Part shown: piece after piece, positions 15,451 through 28,600 of the stretch
Numbering within the stretch: position 1 is the first letter of the stretch
Layout of the letters: the number at the start of each line of letters is the position of its first letter
Assembly: GCA_022826825.1 (NCBI GenBank)
Contig: JAJDUD010000008.1
Span: forward strand, 11,643-75,642
From: Acidobacteriota bacterium
Lineage (GTDB): Bacteria; Acidobacteriota; Vicinamibacteria; Marinacidobacterales; Marinacidobacteraceae
Length of the DNA stretch: 64,000 bases
Direction: 5' to 3'
Notes under the pieces: generated by a model
Told to the model about the DNA's origin: nothing
Database searches by the model: none
Seen by the model: only the letters and a program-made list of their open reading frames with translations
Program-made: the position numbers and the translations under genes

Positions 15451-16146
15451 TCAGAAGTTGCGAGGCTCGAACCCGGGCGGACTCACGATGCTGGCGCTCG
15501 ATCCCACCACGCGAATCAGGAGCAGACCCCGCCGGAGCGCCATCGCGGGTGCGGATTCCGTCGCCGTCAGGTAGGCCATGGCACCGTGAACCGCCTCTCG
15601 CGAACAGTCCGGGAAGAGATCGCGGAAACGCTCCATCTTGCCGACGAACTGCCGGACGTACTCCGGCCGAAGCGTCGTCTTGACCTCGACTCCCACGGAG
15701 ACAGCGTCTCCGAGGGCCACCAGATCCATCTCGGCGACCGTCATCCCGTTCCGCGATATTCCCCGCCGCCGGACCAGGTCACCGTAAACCGGATAGCCGC
15801 CCTTCTGGAGCAGGGGAACGAGATCTCCCTCGGTCAGCGCCTCCATGAGTCGTCCGAAGCGCGCGTCGCCGTCACCCATCATGCGGTGGACCGCCCGACG
15901 CAACGCTTCCTGCGCGGCGGTTTCTCGTTCGTCGCGTTCCTTCCGCTCCTGCCGCCAGGCCGCTTCCTGCGCCTCGCGTTCCCGACGCCGGGCCGCTTCC
16001 TGCGCCTCGCGTTCCCGACTCCGGGCCGCTTCCTCAACCTCGAACCGACGGCGCCATTCCTCGTGCTCACGGATTTCCTGCGCCATCTGGCGCAGGATGC
16101 GCCATACCGACTCGGGGCTGGAGCGGAGGCGACGTTTTCGGGCCAT
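15451..16146 (-). CDS. hypothetical protein with Glu/Arg-rich coiled-coil repeats and a C-terminal PD-(D/E)xK-nuclease-like region
   Basis: Internal ATG (MARKRRLRSS). The upstream part of the track ORF overlaps the TPR gene in a different frame. Contains the tandem repeat REREAQEAARR/REREAQEAAWR. The nuclease-like call is weak. Confidence 0.4.
   Translation of the reverse strand: MARKRRLRSSPESVWRILRQMAQEIREHEEWRRRFEVEEAARSREREAQEAARRREREAQEAAWRQERKERDERETAAQEALRRAVHRMMGDGDARFGRLMEALTEGDLVPLLQKGGYPVYGDLVRRRGISRNGMTVAEMDLVALGDAVSVGVEVKTTLRPEYVRQFVGKMERFRDLFPDCSREAVHGAMAYLTATESAPAMALRRGLLLIRVVGSSASIVSPPGFEPRNF
15905..16050. repeat. 33-nt tandem direct repeat (about 2.5-3 units) inside a CDS
   Basis: GCCGCTTCCTGCGCCTCGCGTTCCCGAC(G/T)CCGG occurs twice in perfect tandem, flanked by degenerate units. 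It encodes the 11-aa E/R repeats. Confidence 0.55.
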
Positions 16147-16168
16147 GAGCGCGCAGCGAGGATTGTAG

Positions 16169-17506
16169 TCAGCGGCCCGGTTCGGGGTGCTTCGCCCGCA
16201 GCGCGGTGACGAAGCCCTCGGGTACTGCGGCGCCCAGATCCTGCGCCTCGTGGACCGCGCTCCACGCTTCCGCGAACCGGTCGAGTTCGGCGAGCGCAAC
16301 CGCCGCCAGCACCCGTGAGGCCCCGTCCTCCGGATCGAGCCGGCGAGCGCGTTCCAGCGCGGCGAGCGCCGGCTCGAAACGGCGCTGGCGGAGCAGCACG
16401 TCGCCCAGCGCAGCGTGGGTCCGCGGCTCATCGGGCCGCGATTCGAGCGACGTACGGAACTCGTATTCCGCGGCGGGAAGGTCCCCCTCGCGCGCCCGGA
16501 GCACGCCCAGCCCGAAGCGGGCGAGCGCCTGTCCCGGGTCGAGCGCCACCGCGTCGCGGTACCGGGGCTCCGCCTCGCCGGGCCGGCCCCGCTGGTCCAG
16601 CACCGCGCCGAACTCGGCGAGCACGTCGGCGTCCCGGGGACGGATCTGGGCGAGATCCCGATAGAGGATCTCGGCATCCTCCAGGCGGCCCGCGCGCCGC
16701 GCCGCCCGGGCGCGCTCCAGCAGGCGCGGGGAAGAGATGTCCCGCTCGCTCATCCGGAAGTGGATCGGGTCCTCGATCGGAGGGAGACCGGCGTCCGGCC
16801 TCCCCTCTCCGGCGCTGAGGACCTCTTCGGCGCGCTCCCGGTCTCCCGCAGCGTTCCAGGCGCGCACGAGCGCCGCGCGCACGCCGCCGGCATCCGGCGC
16901 CAGCGCCAGCGCCCGCTCGAGGAGGGAGATCGCCTCGCGGGCCTCCCCGGCGGCCAACTCGACCGAGCCGAGCCGAAAGAGCGCGAGCGCGGCGCCGGGA
17001 TCGAGGCTGAGGGCTTCCCGATAGGCCTGCCCGGCGCTCGTCCGGTCGCCGAGTTCCTCGCGCAACTCGCCAAGCAGGATGAGGCTCGGCGGATAGCCCG
17101 GATGTTCCTCGATGCCCGCGGCGAGGACTCGCGCCGCTTCCGCGGGGTCGGCGCCGCGACTGGCGTGAGCCAGCAGGTAACGCGCCGTGAGCCGGGACAC
17201 GTCTCCGGCTGGTAGAAGTTCGAGCGCCGCCCGGTAGCACTCCGCCGCCTCGGTCACGAGCCCGTGGGCCTGGAGAGTTTCGCCGTACTCCAGCCAGCGC
17301 GCCGGGTCTTCGGGCCGGGTCCGCAACGCTTCCACGAGGTCGTCCAGGCGTACGAGGATCTGCGGCTCCATACCGCGGCTGTCCACCAGGGGAGGCACCG
17401 GGGACTGCCCGAACGCCCCGTGGGCGGCGAACACGAGTACGACACCGCCGAGGAGGCCACTGCGTCCGGCCGTCGGGATCACGCCCTGTTCACCGTCGTG
17501 CGGCAC
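16169..17506 (-). CDS. secreted tetratricopeptide-repeat (TPR) protein
   Basis: Signal-like N-terminus. About eight Ala/Leu/Glu/Arg-rich 34-aa TPR-like units (AxxxYRxALxLDP pattern repeated). Confidence 0.6.
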   Translation of the reverse strand: MPHDGEQGVIPTAGRSGLLGGVVLVFAAHGAFGQSPVPPLVDSRGMEPQILVRLDDLVEALRTRPEDPARWLEYGETLQAHGLVTEAAECYRAALELLPAGDVSRLTARYLLAHASRGADPAEAARVLAAGIEEHPGYPPSLILLGELREELGDRTSAGQAYREALSLDPGAALALFRLGSVELAAGEAREAISLLERALALAPDAGGVRAALVRAWNAAGDRERAEEVLSAGEGRPDAGLPPIEDPIHFRMSERDISSPRLLERARAARRAGRLEDAEILYRDLAQIRPRDADVLAEFGAVLDQRGRPGEAEPRYRDAVALDPGQALARFGLGVLRAREGDLPAAEYEFRTSLESRPDEPRTHAALGDVLLRQRRFEPALAALERARRLDPEDGASRVLAAVALAELDRFAEAWSAVHEAQDLGAAVPEGFVTALRAKHPEPGR

Positions 17507-17785
17507 GTAGAACGGCAGAAGCTGACACCGAGGGCTCTAGCTGGTGCCCGAAACGCCATCTCCCCAATTCTGGATCCGTCGGGCATACATGTGAGATCGA
17601 AAATGCACGGTCCGAGCGCTATCTTGCGCCGGCTGCTCACGAAGGCAGGTGTTCATTCTTGCAGCCTACAAGGGCACCCTTTAGGATAGCGGATCAAATG
17701 AGCGGGCAGGTGACGCGTGGACCGGGACACACTCCGGAGCCCGAACGCGGGTCAGGTGTGACCGTAGAACAGACAGCTATGCGGA

Positions 17786-18826
17786 GTGACGGCGGCTAGG
17801 ATGCACCCATTGGACGTCGTTCTCAGCGTCGTGTTTTGTGTCCTTTTCCTTGCCGCAATCGGGCTCAGTTTCCGAAGCGGGTCCCGAGTCACTGTTGGGA
17901 CGCTAGTGGGTGGAGGATTGGTAGTCGTCGCCGTTGTTGTCCTGCCTCTCGAGAGCTTGGAATGGAGTCCTGACGGTGGAATCAGAGTCCAGACGCGGGG
18001 GCCACGAATGCGGAATGTTGAAATCTCTGTGCACAGCGTGGCGGAGGGTATTGACACGGAGCAGCTCCACGTGTTTCTTGTACCAGTTCAACATAAAGCA
18101 GTCACCCAGACTAGAAGCGGTGACACGTTCTTCTCGTTCGAAAATGTGCCAGAGGGAGCGTACAACGTGCTTCTAGCGGACCGCGCAGGGCACTTTCTGT
18201 TGGAACCTCGTACAGTGGCAGGCGACCCTACATTGGATTCAATTGACCGGTTCCCGCGGGGAATCAACGTAAGCGGGGAAGTAAGAGAACTTACAGGGCG
18301 TCCCCTGGCAAATGTCGCAGTTGGTCTGGGAGACAACGTCGCGTGGACCAGGGCCGATGGATCCTCTGGTATCGAGGGAGCCCAATCCGGCGAACGTCAA
18401 CTGCGGATACTAGGTCGTGCACAATCACTAGAGCCGATCGAGCTGGGATCAGAAGATGTGGATGCCGGAGTTCTCTATTGGCCCGACCCCGTGCGAGACG
18501 CCCAGTTTTGCGAAGAGATTCAAGTGACTGAGGATTCGGAAGGCGAGAAGAGGTGGGTATTGGTTGACCCGTCACAGACGTTTTCCCCGGACGTTGAACG
18601 TGTGTACTTCTATACACGTGTAGTGGGTGCTACAGCACCAACACAGATAATACACCGGTGGATTCATGACGACACACCTGTTGACGTCCCTCTTGATATC
18701 GAGAGCAACGATTACCGTACAAATAGTTCTCGTCAAATCGATCGAAAGCAAGGCGAGTGGAAAGTACAGGTATTGTCGAAGTCCGGAGATATTCTCGCAA
18801 CCAGGGCTTTCTGGGTTGGAGAATAG
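17786..18826 (+). CDS. membrane-anchored protein with a DUF2914-like C-terminal domain, inside a lower-GC islet
   Basis: N-terminal TM helix followed by beta-rich domains. The tail (VERVYFYTRVVGA...IIHRWIHDDTPV...GEWKVQVLSKSGDILATRAFWV) resembles the DUF2914 signature. GC is markedly lower than the flanks. Confidence 0.4.
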   Translation: MTAARMHPLDVVLSVVFCVLFLAAIGLSFRSGSRVTVGTLVGGGLVVVAVVVLPLESLEWSPDGGIRVQTRGPRMRNVEISVHSVAEGIDTEQLHVFLVPVQHKAVTQTRSGDTFFSFENVPEGAYNVLLADRAGHFLLEPRTVAGDPTLDSIDRFPRGINVSGEVRELTGRPLANVAVGLGDNVAWTRADGSSGIEGAQSGERQLRILGRAQSLEPIELGSEDVDAGVLYWPDPVRDAQFCEEIQVTEDSEGEKRWVLVDPSQTFSPDVERVYFYTRVVGATAPTQIIHRWIHDDTPVDVPLDIESNDYRTNSSRQIDRKQGEWKVQVLSKSGDILATRAFWVGE

Positions 18827-18919
18827 GTCAATCTATAACACGCACTGCTTGCCCACTAACCTACGAGTAGGCGGACTCCGGCGAACCACAAATGGCACGA
18901 CTCTGACACGGTCGCGCCC

Positions 18920-19333
18920 TTGTTTCCCACGATGAAGAAGCTACCATCGTGGGTGTTACCTACTCTGGTTGTAGGAGTGCTCCTTGTTCTGTCCTCCCTC
19001 TTGCTGGTGCGCCTATGGAGTTCGGTGGTCCTTCGGGCTCCATTTTTCGGTCGTTTGGAACCCGCCACGCTCTCGGCCCTTTCCCTCCAAGTCGTCTTAC
19101 TGTCCGCGTTCATTACGCTGTCGAGCTTCATGGTTGCCATGATCGCGTTTCTTGGCTACCGCCAGATCAAGGAGGCTGCGGTGCAGAAAGCCGTCACCGC
19201 AGCAGTGGATAAGTGCCTGGAGCGAACCGACACTGCCGTAAGTGAACGTCTGAATGAGGTTCTTGGATCCAGGGTAGAAACCGGGCCCTCTCCAGAACCA
19301 GAACTAACCGAAGAGGTCTCCGAGGAGGTCTAG
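18920..19333 (+). CDS. small two-TM membrane protein with an acidic coiled-coil tail; true start may be MKKLPSW at 18932
   Basis: Two hydrophobic helices, then a KEAAVQKAV...EEVSEEV tail. The stop lies 2 nt before the ImmA-like gene start. Confidence 0.4.
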   Translation: MFPTMKKLPSWVLPTLVVGVLLVLSSLLLVRLWSSVVLRAPFFGRLEPATLSALSLQVVLLSAFITLSSFMVAMIAFLGYRQIKEAAVQKAVTAAVDKCLERTDTAVSERLNEVLGSRVETGPSPEPELTEEVSEEV

Positions 19334-19335
19334 GG

Positions 19336-19818
19336 ATGGACAAGGAAGAATTGCTGGAAGTCATCCGGTCCCACCAGAAGGAGGCTCCGGTACCCGTCTT
19401 TAACATTGCGCGAGCGATGGGACTGACGGTACTTCGTGCCCGTTGGCCCGACGAGTGGCAGGACAAGATTTCTGGGCAAATACAACGAATCCCTGAGACA
19501 GATCAATACCGGATTCTTCTGAACGCGGCGCATCCACTAACCCGGCAACGGTTTACCTTGGCCCACGAGATCGCCCACTTCGTTCATCACAAGCATCTGA
19601 TCGGAGATGGCATCACTCACGACGCCCTGTACCGAAGTCCACTGTCCACACCGCTGGAGCGAGAAGCAAACCGGCTCGCCGGGAACATTCTGATGCCTTG
19701 GAGCTTGCTTTGGCCCAAGATGTTTAGAGCAGAAACGGACGTGCGGGAGTTAGCGGCGGAGTTCAAGGTTTCTCCAGTAGCAATGGCCATCCAGACCGGG
19801 ATTCCCTACGAGCCGTGA
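19336..19818 (+). CDS. ImmA/IrrE-family (M78) zinc metallopeptidase
   Basis: HEIAHFVHH HEXXH motif in the ImmA/IrrE context, ...EREANRLAGNILMP..., about 160 aa. Confidence 0.65.
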   Translation: MDKEELLEVIRSHQKEAPVPVFNIARAMGLTVLRARWPDEWQDKISGQIQRIPETDQYRILLNAAHPLTRQRFTLAHEIAHFVHHKHLIGDGITHDALYRSPLSTPLEREANRLAGNILMPWSLLWPKMFRAETDVRELAAEFKVSPVAMAIQTGIPYEP

Positions 19819-20340
19819 CCGCCTGAAGCTAGCCGCGAACTGCCGATTTCGGCACAAAAGCAAATGCGAGACCAGAAGATGTCGGCCTAGAAGGCAGCCT
19901 GCCGGGTTGATGCGATAGGTAGCGAGATCCTCGAACGGAGTCCGCAATGATCCTCTGAAGTCTTGCCCCGACGTCATGCGTGAACTGGCCTGCGGCTACT
20001 TGCTTCGCGCTTTCCACGGTTTGCGGGCTGCCCCTAGTGCCGCATCTAGGACACTTGGCGGATCCGTCGCTGCAGCCGTCAGCAATAACCTGACACCTAG
20101 AGCAAATCAACACTAGTGCTATGCCATCAGCCATTGCGCTCCGCCACCAGAGTCGTCATCACCTACCACCATGGAGAGGATCCCAAGAGAACCCTTCTGA
20201 TTGCGCGTCTCTAGCACGCTGAACGGGAGAAGTCAAACGCGCGACTGTCTAGTCCAGGTGCAGGGCCTCCACAGCGAGGCCTGTATAACGCCAGCGGTAA
20301 ACACCGCACTACGCTTCTTCCGGAAGGCATCAGGATTCTG

Positions 20341-22479
20341 CTATTTCGCTCGGCCGAGAGCGGGCCACAGCGTGACGACGAATCGCTCTTCACGGACCGG
20401 AATGCGCACACGGCCCCGCATTCCGTCGTAAAGCGCGTGTTCCGCGCCGGTGCTGCTCAACAAGACCTCCGGCAGGTCCGCATACACGAGGGCCAGCGCC
20501 CCATCTTCGGTCCCCGTGGGCAGGAGTTGGCCCATAAGCGCTCGCGCCTCTTCCGCGCTGATTACCTCCGGGCTGACCTCGCGGGCCTCGAGATGGAAGC
20601 GGCTTCCCGGGAACTGTTCCAGTTCGGCCACCACCGGGATCCCGGACGCGAGCAGGGGACGGAAGTTGCCCGGCACGGCGGCCACGATCTCGAAACCCGC
20701 ACGGGCGGCCCGCACCGTAGCCACCGTCTGGCCGGGATTCACGAGCGTCCCCGGCCTTACCCGTACGTCCGTCAGCACCCCACCCACCGGCACGATCAAC
20801 TGCCGTTCTTCAAGATCCGTCCTTGCCTGTTCGCTCGCGCCGCGCAGGGCCGCGAGCCCATTCCCCACCGTGGGATCCTCCGGGTTCCGCAACAGCCGCA
20901 CCAATGCATCCTCGTACTCGTGCTCTAGGCGCCGCACCTGTGCGAGTTCCGCGTGGTCGTAGAGCGTGCCGATGACGTCCCCCGGAACGACCTCCGTCTG
21001 GGGAGCGATGTGGATGGCCGCCACCGTGCCCGCCTCATTCGCCACCACAGGCACCCGTCCTTGGCTGTGGACGACCGCCATCCCCTCCGCGTACTCGGTG
21101 GCCGTTCCGAAGATCAGGAACGCCGCAAACGCGAGCAGCAGTGCCGCCATGCCGCCCACGATCCAAGATCCCCACCGCTCGGAAACGTTCAGGATGGCGC
21201 TCGGGCTCTCGGAGCGCCGCTGTTCCGCGATCGCTTCGGCGCGGAACACGGATGAGTCCACTCCGACCTCCCCTTGAAGCCGGTGGTATTCCCGAAGGAC
21301 AGCGAGCGGCGGAGCGAAGTCGCTGGCGAGCCGGCGCGCCGTATCCAACAGTTCCGGTCGGAGATGGTCGTGGGCGTCGGCCGCGTGGCACGCGAGCACC
21401 CCAAACACCGTCCCCGAATGGTCCCGGATGGGAACTGCCATCAGTCCGTGTCCGGCCCCTGGCACGAGATCCAACTCCGGATCGAAGAACACCGCGTCCT
21501 CCACGCGTTCTTCGAGCACCGCCACCCCAGACCGCGCGACGTAGGCGATCATGCCGAGCGCCGCGCTATCCGCGAACTCCTCCTGCTGCACGGCGTGGGG
21601 TCCCAGAAGAACCTCCGCCCAATCGTCGTAGGCGTACACCGTCGCCGTGATGTCCGGCATTCGCCGCTCCGCCTGAGCCGCCAAGTCCCGCAACGCGCTC
21701 TGCGCCGCACGTCTCTGTCCACGACTCGTGGCGTCGTACCACGCGAATGCCGGGAACCCGTCCTCGGTGTCCGGTCTCGGGTGAACGAGTTCGCGAAAGA
21801 CCCGCCGGAAGACAGCATTTTCGAGCGCCGCCACCGCCAGCGGGCCGAGGCGGTCCGGGTCCGGCCACCCACTGCATGCGAAGAAAACCTCGCCGGAACC
21901 GACGATGTCGCTCCAGCGGTCGGACATCACGCCCCCGCTTGCGACGAGAATCGGCCGAAGTCCGGGCAGTCGTCGGACGGTGGACCGCACCGACGCGACA
22001 TCGGGTGCCCGGTCTGGCGCACAGCCCAGCAGCAGGGCTCCCACGCTCTGCGGGTTCTGTACTTCCCGCGCGTGGACGATCTCGATCCCCTGTAGGGCCG
22101 GCGTCGCGCGACAGGGCTCGATCGCCCGTTCGTCATCCACGGCGAGGACCACCGGGACCCGGTTCGCAGCCGCGAGGGGAGAACTCGTCCAATCCTCCAC
22201 CAGCGTGAGAACCAACATCTGCACCGCGTTCTCACCACTGCCGTGCGCTGCACCCAGCCGCAGGTCCGCAACTACGGACCAAGCGCTGCCGTTGCCGGAA
22301 CCGAGACGGGCCGTGATCTCCATTCCTTCCATCGCCCCGTCGCGCACCATCACCGCCTCCGCATCCCGGACACACACCCACACCACGCCGGGACCCAGAC
22401 AACATACCCACGCGGGTAATGAAGCACCACCTGCTACCCGAAGCTGCGCAGGCCCTGAGACCCGGCGCCAGCCCTTCAC
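20341..22479 (-). CDS. fusion protein: N-terminal cytoplasmic region with a pseudo-receiver-like segment and a GAF domain, then a TM helix and a CvaA/LcnD/HlyD-type bacteriocin membrane-fusion domain
   Basis: The C-terminal 320 aa begin SVFRAEAIAEQRR...WIVGGMAALLLAFAAFLIFG, the classic N-terminus of CvaA/LcnD-type membrane fusion proteins, followed by a long periplasmic coiled-coil/beta region. The preceding ~390 aa include a GAF-like block (MIAYVARSGVAVLEERV...GLMAVPIRDHSGTVFGVLACH). 4-bp overlap with the upstream ABC gene. Confidence 0.6.
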   Translation of the reverse strand: MKGWRRVSGPAQLRVAGGASLPAWVCCLGPGVVWVCVRDAEAVMVRDGAMEGMEITARLGSGNGSAWSVVADLRLGAAHGSGENAVQMLVLTLVEDWTSSPLAAANRVPVVLAVDDERAIEPCRATPALQGIEIVHAREVQNPQSVGALLLGCAPDRAPDVASVRSTVRRLPGLRPILVASGGVMSDRWSDIVGSGEVFFACSGWPDPDRLGPLAVAALENAVFRRVFRELVHPRPDTEDGFPAFAWYDATSRGQRRAAQSALRDLAAQAERRMPDITATVYAYDDWAEVLLGPHAVQQEEFADSAALGMIAYVARSGVAVLEERVEDAVFFDPELDLVPGAGHGLMAVPIRDHSGTVFGVLACHAADAHDHLRPELLDTARRLASDFAPPLAVLREYHRLQGEVGVDSSVFRAEAIAEQRRSESPSAILNVSERWGSWIVGGMAALLLAFAAFLIFGTATEYAEGMAVVHSQGRVPVVANEAGTVAAIHIAPQTEVVPGDVIGTLYDHAELAQVRRLEHEYEDALVRLLRNPEDPTVGNGLAALRGASEQARTDLEERQLIVPVGGVLTDVRVRPGTLVNPGQTVATVRAARAGFEIVAAVPGNFRPLLASGIPVVAELEQFPGSRFHLEAREVSPEVISAEEARALMGQLLPTGTEDGALALVYADLPEVLLSSTGAEHALYDGMRGRVRIPVREERFVVTLWPALGRAK

Positions 22480-24710
22480 GAATCGTCTCCTGTAGTTCCG
22501 CCCTGCTCAGGCGCCCGTACGAGCGACGCGTATTCACCGTCCAGACTCAGCAGGTCTCCGTGTCTGCCCTCCTCAACGAGATGTCCCTCCTTCAGGACGA
22601 AGATACGGTCCGCGTTGCGGATTGTGTTCAGCCGCTGGGCGATCACGATCCTCGTGCAAGCCAGCCGCGCCAGCCGCGCCTGGATCTTCGCCTCCAGCTT
22701 CGTGTCCAGATTGCTCGTCGCTTCGTCCAGAATCAACACCGGAGGCCCGGTGGCCACCGCCCGCGCCAGCGCCAGACGCTGCATCTGTCCTCCCGAAAGG
22801 AGGAACCCGCCATCGTAGAGCATCGTGTCGTAACCCAGAGGCAGTTTCGCGATGTCATCGTGTATGGAGGCAAGTCGCGCGGCCTCAATCACCTCCGCGA
22901 GCGACATGTCCGGGTTGCCGAGCGCGATGTTCTCGCGAACAGTATCCGCCGCATACCAGTCAGTCTGTGTCACCGTGCCGATCCTGCGACGCACCTCCCG
23001 AAGGTCCAGGGTGGCGAGATCGGTTCCCGAGTACAACACGTGCCCGTTCGTGGGTTCGTAGAGTCCGAGCAACAGTTTCGCCACCGTGGACTTCCCCGCC
23101 CCCGACGGCCCGACGAACGCAACAAATTCCCCCGGGTGGATCGTGAAGGAAACGTCCTGCAAGATGTCCGGGCCCGAATCGCTGTAGCGAAACGTAACGT
23201 GCTGCATCGAGACCGTCCGTGGGTCCACATCCGTCCCAGACCCACGCACCCGACGCTCCGGTTCTGTCTCGATCACGTCCTCAATCCGGTCCACGTAGCT
23301 ACCGAGCAGGTAGATGGACGAAATCGTTCCCACTAGTTTCGACAGCGGTCCCAGGAACCCCATCGCGAAGGCGTTCATCGCCAACATGACCCCAAGGGTC
23401 ATGTGGCCGTCCAGGACGCGCATTGCCCCAACGATGAGAATCAGCATGCCGCCCACGCCCGAGAGCGCACCAGTGATGGCCCCCACGGTCGCGTTGAGAC
23501 GGTTCTGCTCGATCCCGATGTTCAACTCCTTCACGAACAGGTCCGTCCATTTCCGGGCCACCTCGCGCTCCGCGCCAATGGATTTGAGCGCCTCCATTCC
23601 CGAGAGCATCCGCACTTGGTAGCTCCGTGCCTCGGCCTGCCGTTGTATCGACTCCGAAACGAGTTCGCGCAGACGAATTCGCGTCACCGCGAACACCGTG
23701 ACCCGCAGCACGCCGAGCAGCACCACGAGCCCGGCGACCACCACGTCCGTCAGCAGCATCAGGACCAGGTACGACAGCACGAACAGCCCGTCGAGAACCG
23801 CGGAGAATGCCGTTGAGGTCAGCGCACTGCGGATCTGCACATGGCTGTTCATCCGCAGCATCAGGTCACCCGACGAGCGGTTCTGGAGATATGAGAACGG
23901 CAGGTCCATCAGCCGTTCAACGAACGATACGGTCAGCCGGGCGTCAATTCGCGACATCACCTCCACCGCAAGCCGCGAACGTACGAAGGAGAACAGCGTC
24001 GAGAACCCGGCGATCCCGATCAGCGCAATGGCCACCGTCAGCAGCAGTCCCTGGTCTTCCCGAGGTACGATTCGGTCCACTAGTAACGCCGTGAACAGCG
24101 GAATTGCCGTTCCGAGCACCTGGATCGCTGCCGACATCGCGAGAAGCTGCGGCAGGTGTCCGGAGCGCAGGATGACTCGCGCGTAATCACGCAGGACACC
24201 GCGTCCACCGGCCTTTTGCGTCCGGAACGTGTCCGTCGGCCACAACTCCACCGCCACCCCGGTGAAGTTGCGGCTGACCTCCTCCCAGGTCACGATCCGG
24301 CGGCCCGCCGCCGGATCCATTACCCGGATCCCCCGTTTCACGACCCGGTCCAGCACCACGAAGTGGCTAAACCGCCAGTGCAGGATCGCGCCGCGCTGCA
24401 GGCGGCGCAGATCCTCGATCGCATCCACCCGCAGGCCCCGTCCAGCGAGCCCGTGCTGCTCGGCGAGATGCAGCAGATCCGCGGCGTTTGTCCCATCGCG
24501 GCCCGCGGTCAGGTGGTCGCGGAGCGTATGTACGGGAATGTGTTTGCCGTGGAACGCCAGCACGCTCGCCAGGCCGGCGAGACCGCACTCCGTCGCGCCG
24601 GTCTGCTGGACCACCGGCACGGACCGTGGGCGACGGAGCGACCCGATCCCCGTGACCCGCGGTAGCGAGCCCAGGAACGACGGACGCGAGGGCTCAGCCA
24701 TCGGTGTCAC
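22476..24710 (-). CDS. lanT: peptidase-C39-domain ABC transporter (double-glycine leader-cleaving peptide exporter, LanT/CvaB-like)
   Basis: N-terminal C39 domain with catalytic Cys (QTGATECGLAGLASVLAFHG), a six-TM ABC exporter domain, Walker A GPSGAGKST, signature LSGGQMQR and Walker B ILDEATS. Confidence 0.85.
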   Translation of the reverse strand: MTPMAEPSRPSFLGSLPRVTGIGSLRRPRSVPVVQQTGATECGLAGLASVLAFHGKHIPVHTLRDHLTAGRDGTNAADLLHLAEQHGLAGRGLRVDAIEDLRRLQRGAILHWRFSHFVVLDRVVKRGIRVMDPAAGRRIVTWEEVSRNFTGVAVELWPTDTFRTQKAGGRGVLRDYARVILRSGHLPQLLAMSAAIQVLGTAIPLFTALLVDRIVPREDQGLLLTVAIALIGIAGFSTLFSFVRSRLAVEVMSRIDARLTVSFVERLMDLPFSYLQNRSSGDLMLRMNSHVQIRSALTSTAFSAVLDGLFVLSYLVLMLLTDVVVAGLVVLLGVLRVTVFAVTRIRLRELVSESIQRQAEARSYQVRMLSGMEALKSIGAEREVARKWTDLFVKELNIGIEQNRLNATVGAITGALSGVGGMLILIVGAMRVLDGHMTLGVMLAMNAFAMGFLGPLSKLVGTISSIYLLGSYVDRIEDVIETEPERRVRGSGTDVDPRTVSMQHVTFRYSDSGPDILQDVSFTIHPGEFVAFVGPSGAGKSTVAKLLLGLYEPTNGHVLYSGTDLATLDLREVRRRIGTVTQTDWYAADTVRENIALGNPDMSLAEVIEAARLASIHDDIAKLPLGYDTMLYDGGFLLSGGQMQRLALARAVATGPPVLILDEATSNLDTKLEAKIQARLARLACTRIVIAQRLNTIRNADRIFVLKEGHLVEEGRHGDLLSLDGEYASLVRAPEQGGTTGDDS

Positions 24711-24740
24711 CTGTCGTCTTCCGGATCGGAGCGTCGGCGA

Positions 24741-25688
24741 TCACTCTTCGAGAGATCCGGAACAGTCGAGAGCTAGCTCACCTTCGGCCAGTTGCGGAAC
24801 GGCCAGCACGCGCACCGGAGTTCCGGCCGGGAGTTCGTCCGAGCACAGGAGCGCCTCAAAGGTGTGCAGGAGCGTGCGAGGATCCAGTTCGGGAGAGGCG
24901 TGTATCACGAACCCGAGCACCGGCTCATGGTCCTCGAAGGTCACGGTGATCGGCGCGCCGGCAGAGAGTCCGATGGTCGCCTCGGGCGGCGCCGCGAAGC
25001 GAACGTGCCATTCGCCCGCTTCGATCGCCACCACGGGCGCCCCCCGCGTGTCGTACATCCCAGGCGAGCCGTACACCTGGTCCACCACGCCGCCTAGCGG
25101 TGCGCGCAGCGTCGCCTTGGCCGCTTCGGCGCGCGCCTGTTCCGCAGCCGTTCGCGCAGCCCCAAGTCGCGCCTCGGCGGACTCCAGACGCGCCCGGGAC
25201 ACCTCCACTTCGGCCTCCACTTCCTCGAGTTGTTCCGTAGAGAACAGCTCGGAGCGTCCCTTGCGCCGCGTGTAACGGCTGGCGGCCTGCTCCATCTCCA
25301 CCTGTGCAACCCGCAGCGACGCCTCCACTTCGGCGACTGCTGCCTGCGCCACTGCAAGAGTCCGGTCCACCGATTCAGAGTCGAACCGCGCTACTGGTTG
25401 GCCCTCCTTTACCTCGTCCCCCGGCTGTACGAACCGCTCCAGTAACCGGGCGTCAAACGGCGCCGGCACAACAATCCGCCGCTGCCGTACCACGACCCCG
25501 ACATGACCGTAGTTCGCGGGAAGCAGGCCCGGGACTGGCCTACCCACACTCACTCGTCGCTGCGACCCGGATGGCACCGGACCCGGACGCCGCCGTTCCG
25601 GTTCGCTGCCGTCGCCACAACCGACCCAGGCAGCGAAGGCGACCAATCCCGTCGCCAGAAACGCGCCATGTGCTGCTCTGTAGCTCAC
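24741..25688 (-). CDS. HlyD/RND-type periplasmic adaptor lipoprotein
   Basis: GTG start gives a signal with lipobox AAWVGCG. Coiled-coil hairpin, then ATLRAPLGGVVD, a typical adaptor beta-barrel motif. The start overlaps the lanB stop by 4 bp. Confidence 0.6.
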   Translation of the reverse strand: MSYRAAHGAFLATGLVAFAAWVGCGDGSEPERRRPGPVPSGSQRRVSVGRPVPGLLPANYGHVGVVVRQRRIVVPAPFDARLLERFVQPGDEVKEGQPVARFDSESVDRTLAVAQAAVAEVEASLRVAQVEMEQAASRYTRRKGRSELFSTEQLEEVEAEVEVSRARLESAEARLGAARTAAEQARAEAAKATLRAPLGGVVDQVYGSPGMYDTRGAPVVAIEAGEWHVRFAAPPEATIGLSAGAPITVTFEDHEPVLGFVIHASPELDPRTLLHTFEALLCSDELPAGTPVRVLAVPQLAEGELALDCSGSLEE

Positions 25689-28600
25689 CGTTTCGCGCGC
25701 GCCACCAACGAACGATAGGTCCGGCTCAGGAAATCGTAAAGCACCAACTCGTGCGCTCGCGCCGACATGGGAAACAGCCGGTTCGCGTGCATGTGGGTCA
25801 GGGTTTGCAGCAGTTCTTCGAGTGGGCATTCGAGGTCACCAGACTCCGCCAAGTCCCGGAACTGTCGGACTACCTCCTTGGTGTCTTCGGACCGCTGCTG
25901 CAGGACGGCATCGAATCCGGCGAATCGGGAGTCATCGTCCGGGTATCCGGTAACCGCCGCTTGGATATCCCGGCGCTCCGCCCGCAGCCGTCTCGCTAGG
26001 CGCCGCCGTACACTGGGGCCCACTCCGAACTCCTGTCCGAACGACTCCCGCGCCCCGGCAACAACCTGGTTTCTTTCTCCGTAGTCCAGTCCGAAGTCTG
26101 CAAGCAACCGGTCAAAACCCATCGCCACTGCCTTCCACCGGAGGACTTCATCCTCCACCCCGTCGAGCACTCCGACGACCTGGAGCGCCGCCACACTGTC
26201 CGCCCGAAACCACGCTTCTGCCAGTTCGATCCCCCGCCCCCCGCCATAGCGTTCGACCTCGCGCACGTAGGTGTCGAGGCTCACGCGATGGACGGCACCG
26301 GTGGCCAAGAACGGCTGGAGGAGCGCCGACATCCGTTCTTCCAGCGCCCGACGAGCATCCGGCCCGCCTCGAAACCGGACGCGCAAATGGTGTTCCGGGT
26401 CTCCGTACCGGATGAAAAACCACGGCTCACCCGTCGCAGTGGCTCCGTGGAGCGCTGCCAGCGGCGCGACGACCTCGCGGAGCAGCCGATCCGCCGTGCC
26501 AGCGGCAGCGTAGAGCTTGTAGTAGAGCCACTCGTCTCCCGGGATGAAGGCCCGGGAAGCGATTGGTGCCGTCACGTTCCGCTGCTTTACGCCGTCTTCC
26601 CTGACCGAGGGCGCGGCCCGCTGCCTGCGCACGAGCGGAAGGATGAACTCGTTCCGGTAAGTCCCCTCGGGGCCGCTAACGCAGCCTTCCAGATCCTCAG
26701 CGAGCGTCTCCTCTAGAACCAGGGTGGGTCGGCGCGCCCCATGATCCGCCAGCACCGCCACGCACATCGGGTTGTCCAGATCCAGCAGCAGACGGTTCTC
26801 CCCATCGACGAGACGAACGAAACGCGGAAGCTTCAGCTCCCGAACCAGGGCCAACAGTGCGTCCTCACGGGCGGCGGGCTTCTTCGCCTTCGCAATGGCT
26901 TTGTACTCCGGACGATTGCGTCCCACCATCCAGCGGGCAAGCGCGTAAATGGCACGACCCCGGGTCACTCGCGGCAGGAACGGAAGTCCGTTCAGCACCC
27001 CCCAGTTCCAGCTGAACCCCGGCGCCGTCCCGTCGTTCTGGAGCGCGCATAGAAACCGATACATCCCGGAACTACGTCGATAGTTGTGGGCTGAGGTAAG
27101 GCGTGGGCGCACGATCCTGCCGTCCTGACGCGAGCGCAGCCGAAAACTGCTACCCTCCAGACTCAGCAGCAGATCGTCCACGGTCAGCCGCTTCGGACCG
27201 GTGAGCCGCGAGTTACCGCTACAACTCAACTCGATGTCGCGGACATGAGGTCGTCGCACGACATTGCCGACTCTACCCTCCGGTGTGTGCACGATTTCGG
27301 CATAGACCACCCCGGGTTCCAGCGCCTCCTCATCTCGAAGGTGGCCGCGCACCCGCTCGAGCAACACGGGGTCGAGATCGCAGAACCTTCCCAGCAACCG
27401 GCCACCCGACGGGCCGAAGCCGCCGTGATAGAGGATCCGATATGCGCCGCTCTGCACGGCCTCCTCAGAGGCAGCCACTAGATCAAAGTGGAGTGCCACG
27501 GCCGCTGGCAGAGGGCTCTGAACCGAGGTCGCGAGGCGTGTGAGCAGGTCATCGTCCAGTTCGAGACTCGCTGGGGCTTCACCCCGGAGGTCCAGGAGGC
27601 GCTCCATCAGCGCGTCCGGCACGCCCTGCTGAGGGCTTTTTCCGCGGTTGCCCTCTGCCCCGATGTTGAGGCCGGCAAGGAGCGGCGATCCTGACTGACG
27701 TGGTCGCAGATCCGGACCAGGCACACCGAGTCCCCGTTCCGGATCGAAAACCTCTGCTAGCGGAACCTCGCGTGTCTCGTACCGCTCCCGGAAGCGGCTC
27801 TTGAGGTCACGCAACGGATCCGGTAACCGCGTCATCAGGCGGTGTAACGTGTCGGCACCGCGAAGCACCTCGTCGACGACCTCCTCGGCGAGTTGCAACT
27901 CTTCGGTTTCCTTGAACATGTCCACCTGGAGGAGCCGCTCGGTTTTCTTCTGACCGAGAGGCCCGGTCCACACCGCGTTCACCGCCGCGTACGCCTCGGG
28001 TGGTGCCGCCACTCCATGCTCGTCGAGCTGGTCGAGCGCTTCGCGTAGCTGCCGGACCGGAGTGGCTGACTCGGACAGCGCCTCGCTCGCAGCGAGAGCC
28101 TGAAGGATCTGGTCCAGCGGATCGCTACCTACGACCGCAGGCACCAGCTCCGGCACGAGCACCTGCGACTCGATGAGGTCGTCAAGGTACTCGTCGATGT
28201 CGTCCGAGTTCACATCCGCATCAGTGATGGCGAGCGTCAACGCGGCATGTAATCCAGCCAGCGGCATCGCTTTCGCGGACCGCCGCTCCAAGGCGGCCGA
28301 AAGCGCTTCGTCATTCTCGAGAAACGCCATCTCGTGCCGGTTTTCGGGACCGCGCTGTCGCGCTTCCACATACTGGTACCCGCCCGCAATGGCCGCGATC
28401 GTGTCGTTGGGGCGGTAACGGAGATTCTTCCGGACTCCTTGTTGCCTCAGGAGGCTACCGACCAACTTGGCCACCTGCGCTTGGTCAAGTGCTGAGCGAC
28501 GCCGGTAACGGTCGCGCCCAGCAAGTCTCAGGCGCGTCAGTTCGCCTACGTTCCCCACGGATACACCGGCGAACAGGCCGAATGGCGTGCATCGGTCGCA

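Follow-up and report, generated by a model that had tools for sequence, protein, structure and literature searches.

A 64,000-nucleotide stretch of contig JAJDUD010000008.1 from an Acidobacteriota bacterium (assembly GCA_022826825.1), referred to here as the window, carries two adjacent genes, the first of which encodes a small membrane protein with two predicted transmembrane (TM) helices and the second a stand-alone zinc peptidase of the ImmA/IrrE type (M78, COG2856). Peptidases of this type are understood almost wholly as enzymes that activate genes by cutting XRE-family repressors; in the clade described here, a membrane protein has taken the place of the repressor. The pairing is obligate and conserved across phyla, plasmids and prophages, and we propose, at what we judge to be an even chance, that it constitutes a toxin–antitoxin or abortive-infection module, in which a membrane effector is held in check by its co-translated peptidase, probably through proteolysis of the effector's cytoplasmic part. 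Coordinates of the features discussed are collected in Table 1.

Conservation of the pair was assessed in loci sampled by means of conserved peptide patterns, with the best 80 retained per collection, so that the proportions given below describe this sample and are not a census. A total of 452 peptidase homologues were confirmed, and the 80 best loci plus the window's own contig make up a set of 81 genome loci; genes were taken from our own calls of open reading frames (ORFs), and the loci were searched with an iterated profile of the small protein. A search for the gene pair elsewhere, as suggested in a first-pass annotation made from the DNA letters, was successful: a member of the small family lies immediately upstream of the M78 gene, on the same strand, in 49 of the 81 genome loci, and it holds the same upstream position in 37 of 78 IMG/VR viral contigs, many of which are predicted prophages. 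Hosts of the peptidase-homologue loci include Acidobacteriota, Alpha- and Gammaproteobacteria and Spirochaetia; in addition, a plasmid of the Bacteroidota (Persicobacter) bears a related cluster of two-TM, M78, beta and cII-like genes, and a RefSeq plasmid has the pair annotated as "hypothetical protein" followed by "ImmA/IrrE family metallo-endopeptidase". When sampling starts from the small protein instead, Peptidase_M78 is found directly downstream in all six assessable contigs, at gaps of −4 to +11 nucleotides (nt), and a seventh contig contains a cut ORF resembling the M78 N-terminus.

The arrangement within the pair is equally tight. Both ORFs lie on the forward strand and, as the first-pass annotation had noted, only 2 nt separate the stop of the small ORF (19333) from the start of the peptidase gene (19336). 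Together with a Shine-Dalgarno sequence for the peptidase gene that is embedded in the small gene, and with stop-to-start gaps in relatives whose mode is −4 (11 loci; usual gaps −4 to +2, most of them within −30 to +25), this spacing indicates a single operon with coupled translation. No Shine-Dalgarno sequence precedes the ATG at 18932, and no sigma-70-like promoter was found for the pair.

The small ORF is a real gene, the decisive evidence being its synteny with M78 homologues. On its own the protein is elusive: no family in Pfam, NCBIfam, PHROG or PADLOC matches it, word-indexed searching of 5.8 billion proteins returned the ORF itself alone, and the same kind of search with a 39-sequence family profile gave almost no matches. 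An exhaustive HMMER scan of 1.8 billion representatives, however, recovered nine weak relatives (E-values 8e-7 to 8e-4) of 121-168 amino acids (aa), all with the layout of the window protein (relatives P0122-P0131, weak but consistent), and the HMMER scan and profile searches together place a family with retained architecture in conserved synteny at more than 90 loci. Against the hidden Markov model (HMM) of this family, the window protein scores E 2.6e-24. Moreover, the guanine-plus-cytosine (GC) content of the small ORF by codon position (0.63/0.42/0.62) is of the coding type and matches the pattern in the M78 gene (0.63/0.40/0.64), the third-position values of the pair (0.62-0.64) standing apart from those of host genes (0.78-0.86). 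The first-pass annotation had allowed that the small ORF might turn out to be non-coding, and one could go further and regard it as non-functional, with the peptidase an orphan remnant of a repressor–protease pair. The solitary self-match in the word-indexed search, the missing family match and the lack of a Shine-Dalgarno sequence before ATG 18932 would fit such a view; synteny in more than 90 loci and coding-like codon-position GC refute it, and we consider its probability close to negligible.

That a membrane protein stands where an HTH (helix-turn-helix) repressor is expected was pointed out in the first-pass annotation, and the comparison of loci supports an evolutionarily conserved partner swap over a local oddity. 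Among the 38 loci whose peptidase is closest to that of the window, 36 have the membrane partner; the two exceptions, which suggest partner exchange, carry a GIY-YIG nuclease-like ORF (L029, 3491-3907, +) and a 372-aa protein without a family (L003, 2834-3952, +). A CapH-like XRE HTH partner is present in 17 of the 81 loci, all of them with distant peptidases and some adjoining E1/E2-like defence genes, and in none of the 81 do XRE and membrane proteins occur together as adjacent partners. Within the window, Pfam identifies no HTH gene adjoining the pair among island ORFs of at least 40 aa, and a CapH-like HMM has no match anywhere in the 64 kb, which speaks against the idea, also considered at first pass, that an XRE gene might lie just beyond the recognisable ORFs. 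Among 129 neighbours of related pairs, HTH_31 was seen in two.

Several variations on the locus were observed alongside. A 68-aa DUF6471 protein, HTH-like in sequence and absent from the window, adjoins the pair in three closely related loci (L174 1073-1279, −; L176 296-502, +; L011 5525-5821, +), in one of which it directly abuts the membrane-protein gene at its start; a regulatory function within that subclade is possible. Second in profile score to the window's own peptidase is one from a contig assigned to a metagenome-assembled genome labelled Nitrosopumilaceae archaeon (L004; 3675-3860 and 4001-4558), where the membrane-protein ORF is shortened to 61 aa, as it is to 77 aa in another locus (L005, 3668-3901); decay, a frameshift or a problem of binning may lie behind this. 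In four further loci (L015 442-3513, L022 77-3484, L030 271-3459 and L024 213-3056, all +), an ORF of ~950-1135 aa on the same strand ends just ahead of the membrane-protein gene.

The peptidase appears, from its sequence, to be catalytically intact. Its assignment to the ImmA/IrrE type, made at first pass from the HEIAH motif, is confirmed by a match of residues 50-151 to Pfam PF06114 (E 8.7e-21, 74.4 bits against a cut-off of 22) that includes a complete HExxH...E signature. All 41 aligned family sequences share H77, E78, H81 and E108, and HExxH is kept in 85 of the 86 peptidases that have a membrane partner; Glu108 corresponds to Glu129 of Thauera CapP, whose active site is formed by H96, E97, H100 and E129 (10.1101/2022.04.27.489752). 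Among PADLOC models, capP fits best (E 1.5e-23, profile positions 11-149 of 242), and the AlphaFold2 model (predicted local distance difference test, pLDDT, 90.2), which consists of a catalytic domain and a small helical subdomain, has CapP (7t5t, E 5e-6), IrrE (3dti) and PprI (8sln) as its best Foldseek matches in the PDB, with TM-scores of ~0.6 when normalised by the query and 0.37-0.43 when normalised by the 240-278-aa targets.

Despite sharing fold and active site with the proteases of the CapH/CapP, ImmR/ImmA and DdrO/IrrE(PprI) switches, the window differs from these systems in having a membrane protein as partner and neither an HTH substrate gene, a GAF sensor, a cysteine switch nor an evident regulated operon. 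Pfam detects no N-terminal XRE HTH in the peptidase, and within its 160 residues, matched to capP up to profile position 149 of 242, there is no C-terminal GAF domain; CapP and PprI are activated by single-stranded DNA (ssDNA) that binds in a groove lying between their peptidase and GAF domains (10.64898/2026.05.16.725639; 10.1101/2022.04.27.489752). Between the HExxH and Glu108 helices, a conserved loop, modelled with pLDDT below 50 at residues 93-101 although its columns are invariant or nearly so, sits where CapP, going by its published description, has the "cysteine switch" loop, and lacks the cysteine; it may represent a lid or a substrate-binding element.

The small protein was described at first pass as a 137-aa two-TM protein with an acidic tail, of which the two hydrophobic helices and the tail hold and the length does not: 137 aa is obtained by counting from the TTG at 18920, and relatives align from the MKKL encoded at ATG 18932, so that the true length is most likely 133 aa. 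A metagenome gene caller gives a 102-aa version beginning at GTG 19025, a start that would remove the conserved first TM helix. In the AlphaFold2 model (mean pLDDT 82.5), a helix spanning residues 8-34 corresponds to TM1, and a single unbroken helix (44-115) consists of TM2 extended by a cytoplasmic helix of ~40 residues, followed by a disordered tail whose last 18 residues include seven acidic and no basic ones. An N-terminal KK, an RQIK just past TM2 and a peptidase without an export signal point to an N-in/C-in topology. The best-conserved columns of the family comprise small residues in TM2 (A/G69, A/G72, G75) followed by an aromatic at 76, then I79 and K/R80 where the chain leaves the membrane, alanines that form a stripe along the cytoplasmic helix (83/87/91), and G118 with an acidic position at 125 in the tail (G118...D125). 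Since the small-residue motif and the alanine stripe are typical of helix-helix packing, oligomerisation is plausible, and the juxtamembrane segment and the tail motif are obvious candidate sites for contact with, or cleavage by, the peptidase. Foldseek comparison of the model with the PDB and BFVD produced no match with E < 3.

A terminator-like hairpin followed by TTTTT (19015-19043, +) lies inside the small gene, between the segments for the two TM helices, and overlaps both a GGAG and the GTG at 19025 that the gene caller uses as start. It was rejected as a terminator, its folding energy being no better than that of shuffled sequences (z −1.66).

The composition of the pair and the company it keeps mark it as a unit independent of its surroundings. 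In 45 of 48 loci, the GC content of the pair is below that of the flanks, by 9.4 points on average, and low GC is therefore a property of the module itself; in the window, the island that contains the pair has a GC content of 0.50-0.59, against 0.68-0.76 on both sides, and its flanks yielded neither direct repeats nor a tRNA or an integrase. Among 129 neighbours of 47 loci, the sole recurrent family is Beta_protein (PF14350, in 22); the remainder are housekeeping genes and transposases, with a restriction or ATPase gene now and then. No beta gene is present in the 12 loci whose peptidases are nearest to that of the window, and the neighbours there encode TGT, a dicarboxylate symporter, transketolase, Lnt, a type III restriction enzyme and an IS1595 transposase. 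Low GC, varied neighbours and occurrence on plasmids and viral contigs argue for a selfish piece of mobile DNA.

These observations also bear on the position of the pair in the window, where the island is flanked on one side by a TPR gene and on the other, at ~500 nt from the pair, by a class I lanthipeptide cluster (HlyD, C39-ABC transporter, LanB, LanC). The first-pass annotation read a role in immunity or regulation for this peptide-antibiotic cluster out of that proximity. Given the composition boundary, the unrelated neighbours elsewhere and the lack of any conserved link to lanthipeptide clusters (a relative of the ABC transporter occurs in 4 of 81 loci), the adjacency is incidental and the pair a self-contained mobile unit. 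The same evidence weighs on a second suggestion made at first pass, that of an anti-sigma-like switch, according to which cleavage would free or inactivate a membrane-tethered regulatory tail acting in trans, possibly to control the lanthipeptide cluster or to give protection from it. M78 peptidases do classically cleave a regulator, the cluster is close, and the cytoplasmic tail could bind another protein; against this, a sharp change in composition separates pair and cluster, their adjacency is not conserved, the closest relatives of the pair sit among housekeeping genes, Pfam finds a DNA- or sigma-binding domain in neither protein and Foldseek no related fold for the small one, so that we hold a switch of this kind to be very improbable. 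That the small protein is a membrane-tethered substrate of the peptidase, also raised at first pass, is by comparison a live possibility.

The recurrent neighbour, Beta_protein, links the pair to a known defence system. A PF14350 gene lies a few nucleotides 3' of the peptidase gene in 30 of 81 genome and 28 of 78 viral loci, and is followed by a convergent gene of the sce7726 type (cII-like) in 13 genome and 18 viral loci; the two match the PADLOC models "beta" and "cll", respectively. This order recalls phage P4 (NC_001609, L163), where gop (247-648) and beta (651-1718) are followed by cII on the opposite strand (1746-2540), so that in many relatives of the window pair the small protein is in the position equivalent to Gop. 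The gop-beta-cII locus protects against lambda and P1, Gop being toxic without beta (PMC9122126), and can be triggered by a phage accessory gene as a cell-death system (10.1101/2023.04.06.535777). P4 Gop has the architecture of the small protein: a pair of TM helices, with "GWFTHRTIK" as the juxtamembrane sequence, is followed by a charged coiled-coil region and a tail, its identical length of 133 aa being a coincidence; the same layout is seen in a Gop-like protein of Pasteurella phage Pmp11 (L167 2101-2496), directly before beta and with cII convergent. P4 differs in having no peptidase gene, and the window, searched across its whole length, in having neither beta nor cII.

This likeness is architectural and positional, and homology is not demonstrable from the sequences: the PADLOC gop model does not match the small protein, hmmsearch gives 4 bits, and hhalign of Gop against the small family, with a Gop profile built from three sequences, yields a probability of 0.8-1.4% over 14-16 columns at the juxtamembrane motif. 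Attempts to widen the Gop set returned near-identical P4 copies only from a single-protein query and few records from tblastn. The accessible portions of the gop literature contain no description of Gop as a two-TM plus coiled-coil protein. In another variant of the beta/cII arrangement, an unrelated protein of ~340-350 aa without TM helices precedes beta/sce7726 on a Pseudomonas putida plasmid (L168 1186-2244) and a Sinorhizobium fredii plasmid (L169 1345-2370), taking the place of Gop or of the membrane protein–peptidase pair.

A second point of comparison is RosmerTA, which establishes the combination of an M78 protein and a variable toxin as a known kind of system. ImmA-domain RmrA antitoxins pair with diverse toxins, whose gene often comes first (PMC10440598; 10.1101/2022.05.11.491447), and the RmrT of Gordonia phage Kita is a validated membrane-depolarising partner with TM segments (PMC10440598). 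The window pair is alike in being a two-gene mobile module that combines an M78-domain protein with highly diverse partners, often encoded first, a combination that likewise characterises the ImmA hub (node D25) of the NetFlax toxin–antitoxin network. The window peptidase matches 13 RmrA models (best E 8.1e-12) through their peptidase part only (146-286 of 380), the matches beginning at profile positions ~140-215; RmrA proteins are ~360-400 aa long, against 160 aa without an N-terminal HTH here, and this Xre HTH is frequent, though not universal, in RmrA (PMC10440598). On the toxin side, the small protein matches no RmrT model and no PADLOC family of any kind at E ≤1, nor does its relative in L011 at E ≤0.01. 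HigX, a membrane-bound XRE regulator (PMC13384398), was considered as an analogue and found to be unrelated.

PD-lambda-2, an abortive-infection system, combines a HigB-like protein, an Xre-M78 fusion and a P4 beta-like protein (PMC9519451). Its PD-Lambda-2_B model is matched by the window peptidase (E 6e-8) and its PD-Lambda-2_C model, weakly, by the beta proteins of relatives, whereas the window has no HigB-like gene, Xre fusion or beta gene.

With these systems in mind, we infer toxicity, cleavage, a direction of control and a role in phage defence for the two genes, which would make up an autonomous, horizontally mobile module with a logic like that of RosmerTA and P4 gop-beta-cII. The small protein would enter the inner membrane as a helical hairpin, its long helix and acidic tail staying on the cytoplasmic side, and, acting as effector or toxin, would form oligomers and disturb or depolarise the membrane, as known small membrane toxins do. 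The cytoplasmic M78 peptidase would neutralise it, most likely by cutting the juxtamembrane helix or the tail, or possibly by binding; once phage infection, for example, led to loss or inhibition of the peptidase or left it outpaced, the membrane protein would act and growth would stop. The partner swaps described above, to a GIY-YIG ORF, a 372-aa protein of no known family and XRE proteins, argue for a promiscuity like that of antitoxins.

A number of points weigh against this proposal. For the small protein, the RmrT and gop models of PADLOC, hhalign against Gop and Foldseek all fail to lend support; RmrA antitoxins usually carry the N-terminal HTH that the window peptidase lacks; the window pair itself is not flanked by defence genes; and in PD-lambda-2 it is the M78-containing protein that is the toxic component (PMC9519451), so that control could be reversed.

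One way in which control might run in the opposite direction is that the cytoplasmic helix and acidic tail of the membrane protein hold it inactive, and that a latent M78 peptidase, on an infection cue, cuts off the tail and so sets off pore formation. Protease-activated bacterial gasdermins follow a comparable logic, and the strict conservation of the catalytic residues implies that proteolysis, and not mere binding, is under selection. Juxtamembrane G75, the aromatic at 76, I79, K/R80 and G118...D125 offer plausible docking or cleavage sites, and the conserved, flexibly modelled loop of the peptidase sits where CapP has its autoinhibitory switch loop. However, the peptidase has no recognisable sensor, the ssDNA-sensing GAF domain of CapP and IrrE being missing, and both the swap to a GIY-YIG partner and the precedent of RosmerTA suit an antitoxin role better; we rate reverse control as unlikely, though it is the main alternative.

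Alternatively, the peptidase itself could be the harmful component, with the membrane protein as an inhibitor or an anchor that sequesters it until a signal arrives. Early comparative genomics reportedly predicted COG2856 proteins to be toxins. A precedent is the Xre-M78 protein of PD-lambda-2, which is toxic alone and rescued by its upstream partner (PMC9519451). Yet L003 and L029 keep an intact HExxH peptidase without a membrane partner, a state that would be hard to tolerate if the enzyme were toxic alone. Small hydrophobic hairpin proteins, moreover, are typical toxins and not antitoxins, and we regard this arrangement as quite improbable.

A broader version of the effector–peptidase proposal can be offered only tentatively and with less confidence than the proposal itself: the pair would be an uncatalogued protease-gated membrane effector, and the minimal core of a combinatorial defence family would consist of a Gop-like two-TM protein and an M78 peptidase lacking a sensor, with the XRE substrate replaced and beta/cII open to recruitment. 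If P4 Gop were a divergent member, gop-beta-cII, PD-lambda-2 and RosmerTA would join in one evolutionary network, and the real substrate of the peptidase would be a membrane toxin instead of a transcription factor. In the literature searched, the membrane-protein family, its systematic pairing with a minimal peptidase devoid of HTH and GAF domains, its mutual exclusion with XRE partners and the recurrent joining to P4 beta and cII genes all appear to be undescribed. Cleavage of the membrane protein, if it occurs, would widen the substrate range of the M78 family and provide a simple two-gene model of a protease-controlled membrane toxin, and the recurrent association with beta/cII offers a handle on the unexplained P4 gop-beta-cII and PD-lambda-2 systems. 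For annotation, there is reason to name a family that RefSeq now lists as "hypothetical protein".

Table 1. Features of the membrane protein–peptidase pair and its island (positions in the window)
Feature	Position (nt)	Strand	Residues (aa)	Remarks
Low-GC island with the pair and a DUF2914 gene	17500..20350	.		Context; not demonstrated to be part of the module
DUF2914 membrane-protein gene	17786-18826			In low-GC island
Small membrane-protein gene	18932..19333	+	133	From ATG 18932; TTG 18920 is the mechanical ORF start
TM1	18953-19018	+	8-29	Predicted
Short outside loop between TM1 and TM2				Predicted layout
TM2	19073-19159	+	48-76	Predicted
Cytoplasmic helix	19160-19276	+	77-115	Predicted
Acidic disordered tail	19277-19330	+	116-133	Predicted
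GAGGAGG ribosome-binding site of peptidase gene	19321..19327	+		Inside last codons of small gene
Stand-alone ImmA/IrrE-type (M78, COG2856) zinc peptidase gene	19336-19818	+	160
HEIAH zinc-binding/catalytic motif	19564-19578	+	His77, Glu78, His81	Invariant, 41 aligned members
Conserved loop between HExxH helix and Glu108 helix	19600..19638	+	G90, G92, D96-A-L-Y-R-S101
Glu108 (E-x2-A-N motif)	19657-19659	+	E108, A111, N112	Predicted third zinc ligand; E108, A111 and N112 invariant

Two other ORFs near the pair were considered as components and rejected. The DUF2914 gene that shares the island does not recur beside related pairs. A 101-aa CxxC...CxxC ORF convergent with the peptidase gene (19829-20134, −) is probably not a gene, on the grounds of its flat codon-position GC (0.58/0.59/0.54), its absence from the calls of the metagenome pipeline, Pfam matches that all stay below threshold, and its lack of recurrence.

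Farther from the pair, the lanthipeptide-type cluster (20341-25829 and beyond, −) comprises two HlyD-family proteins and a C39-peptidase ABC exporter, then homologues of LanB and LanC; one of the HlyD-family proteins, 712 aa in length, has a long N-terminal region without a Pfam domain. At 15451-16677 (−), the longest mechanical ORF encodes 408 aa that include a REREAQEAA-type repeat and match no Pfam family significantly; the metagenome pipeline calls only a 231-aa gene in this region.

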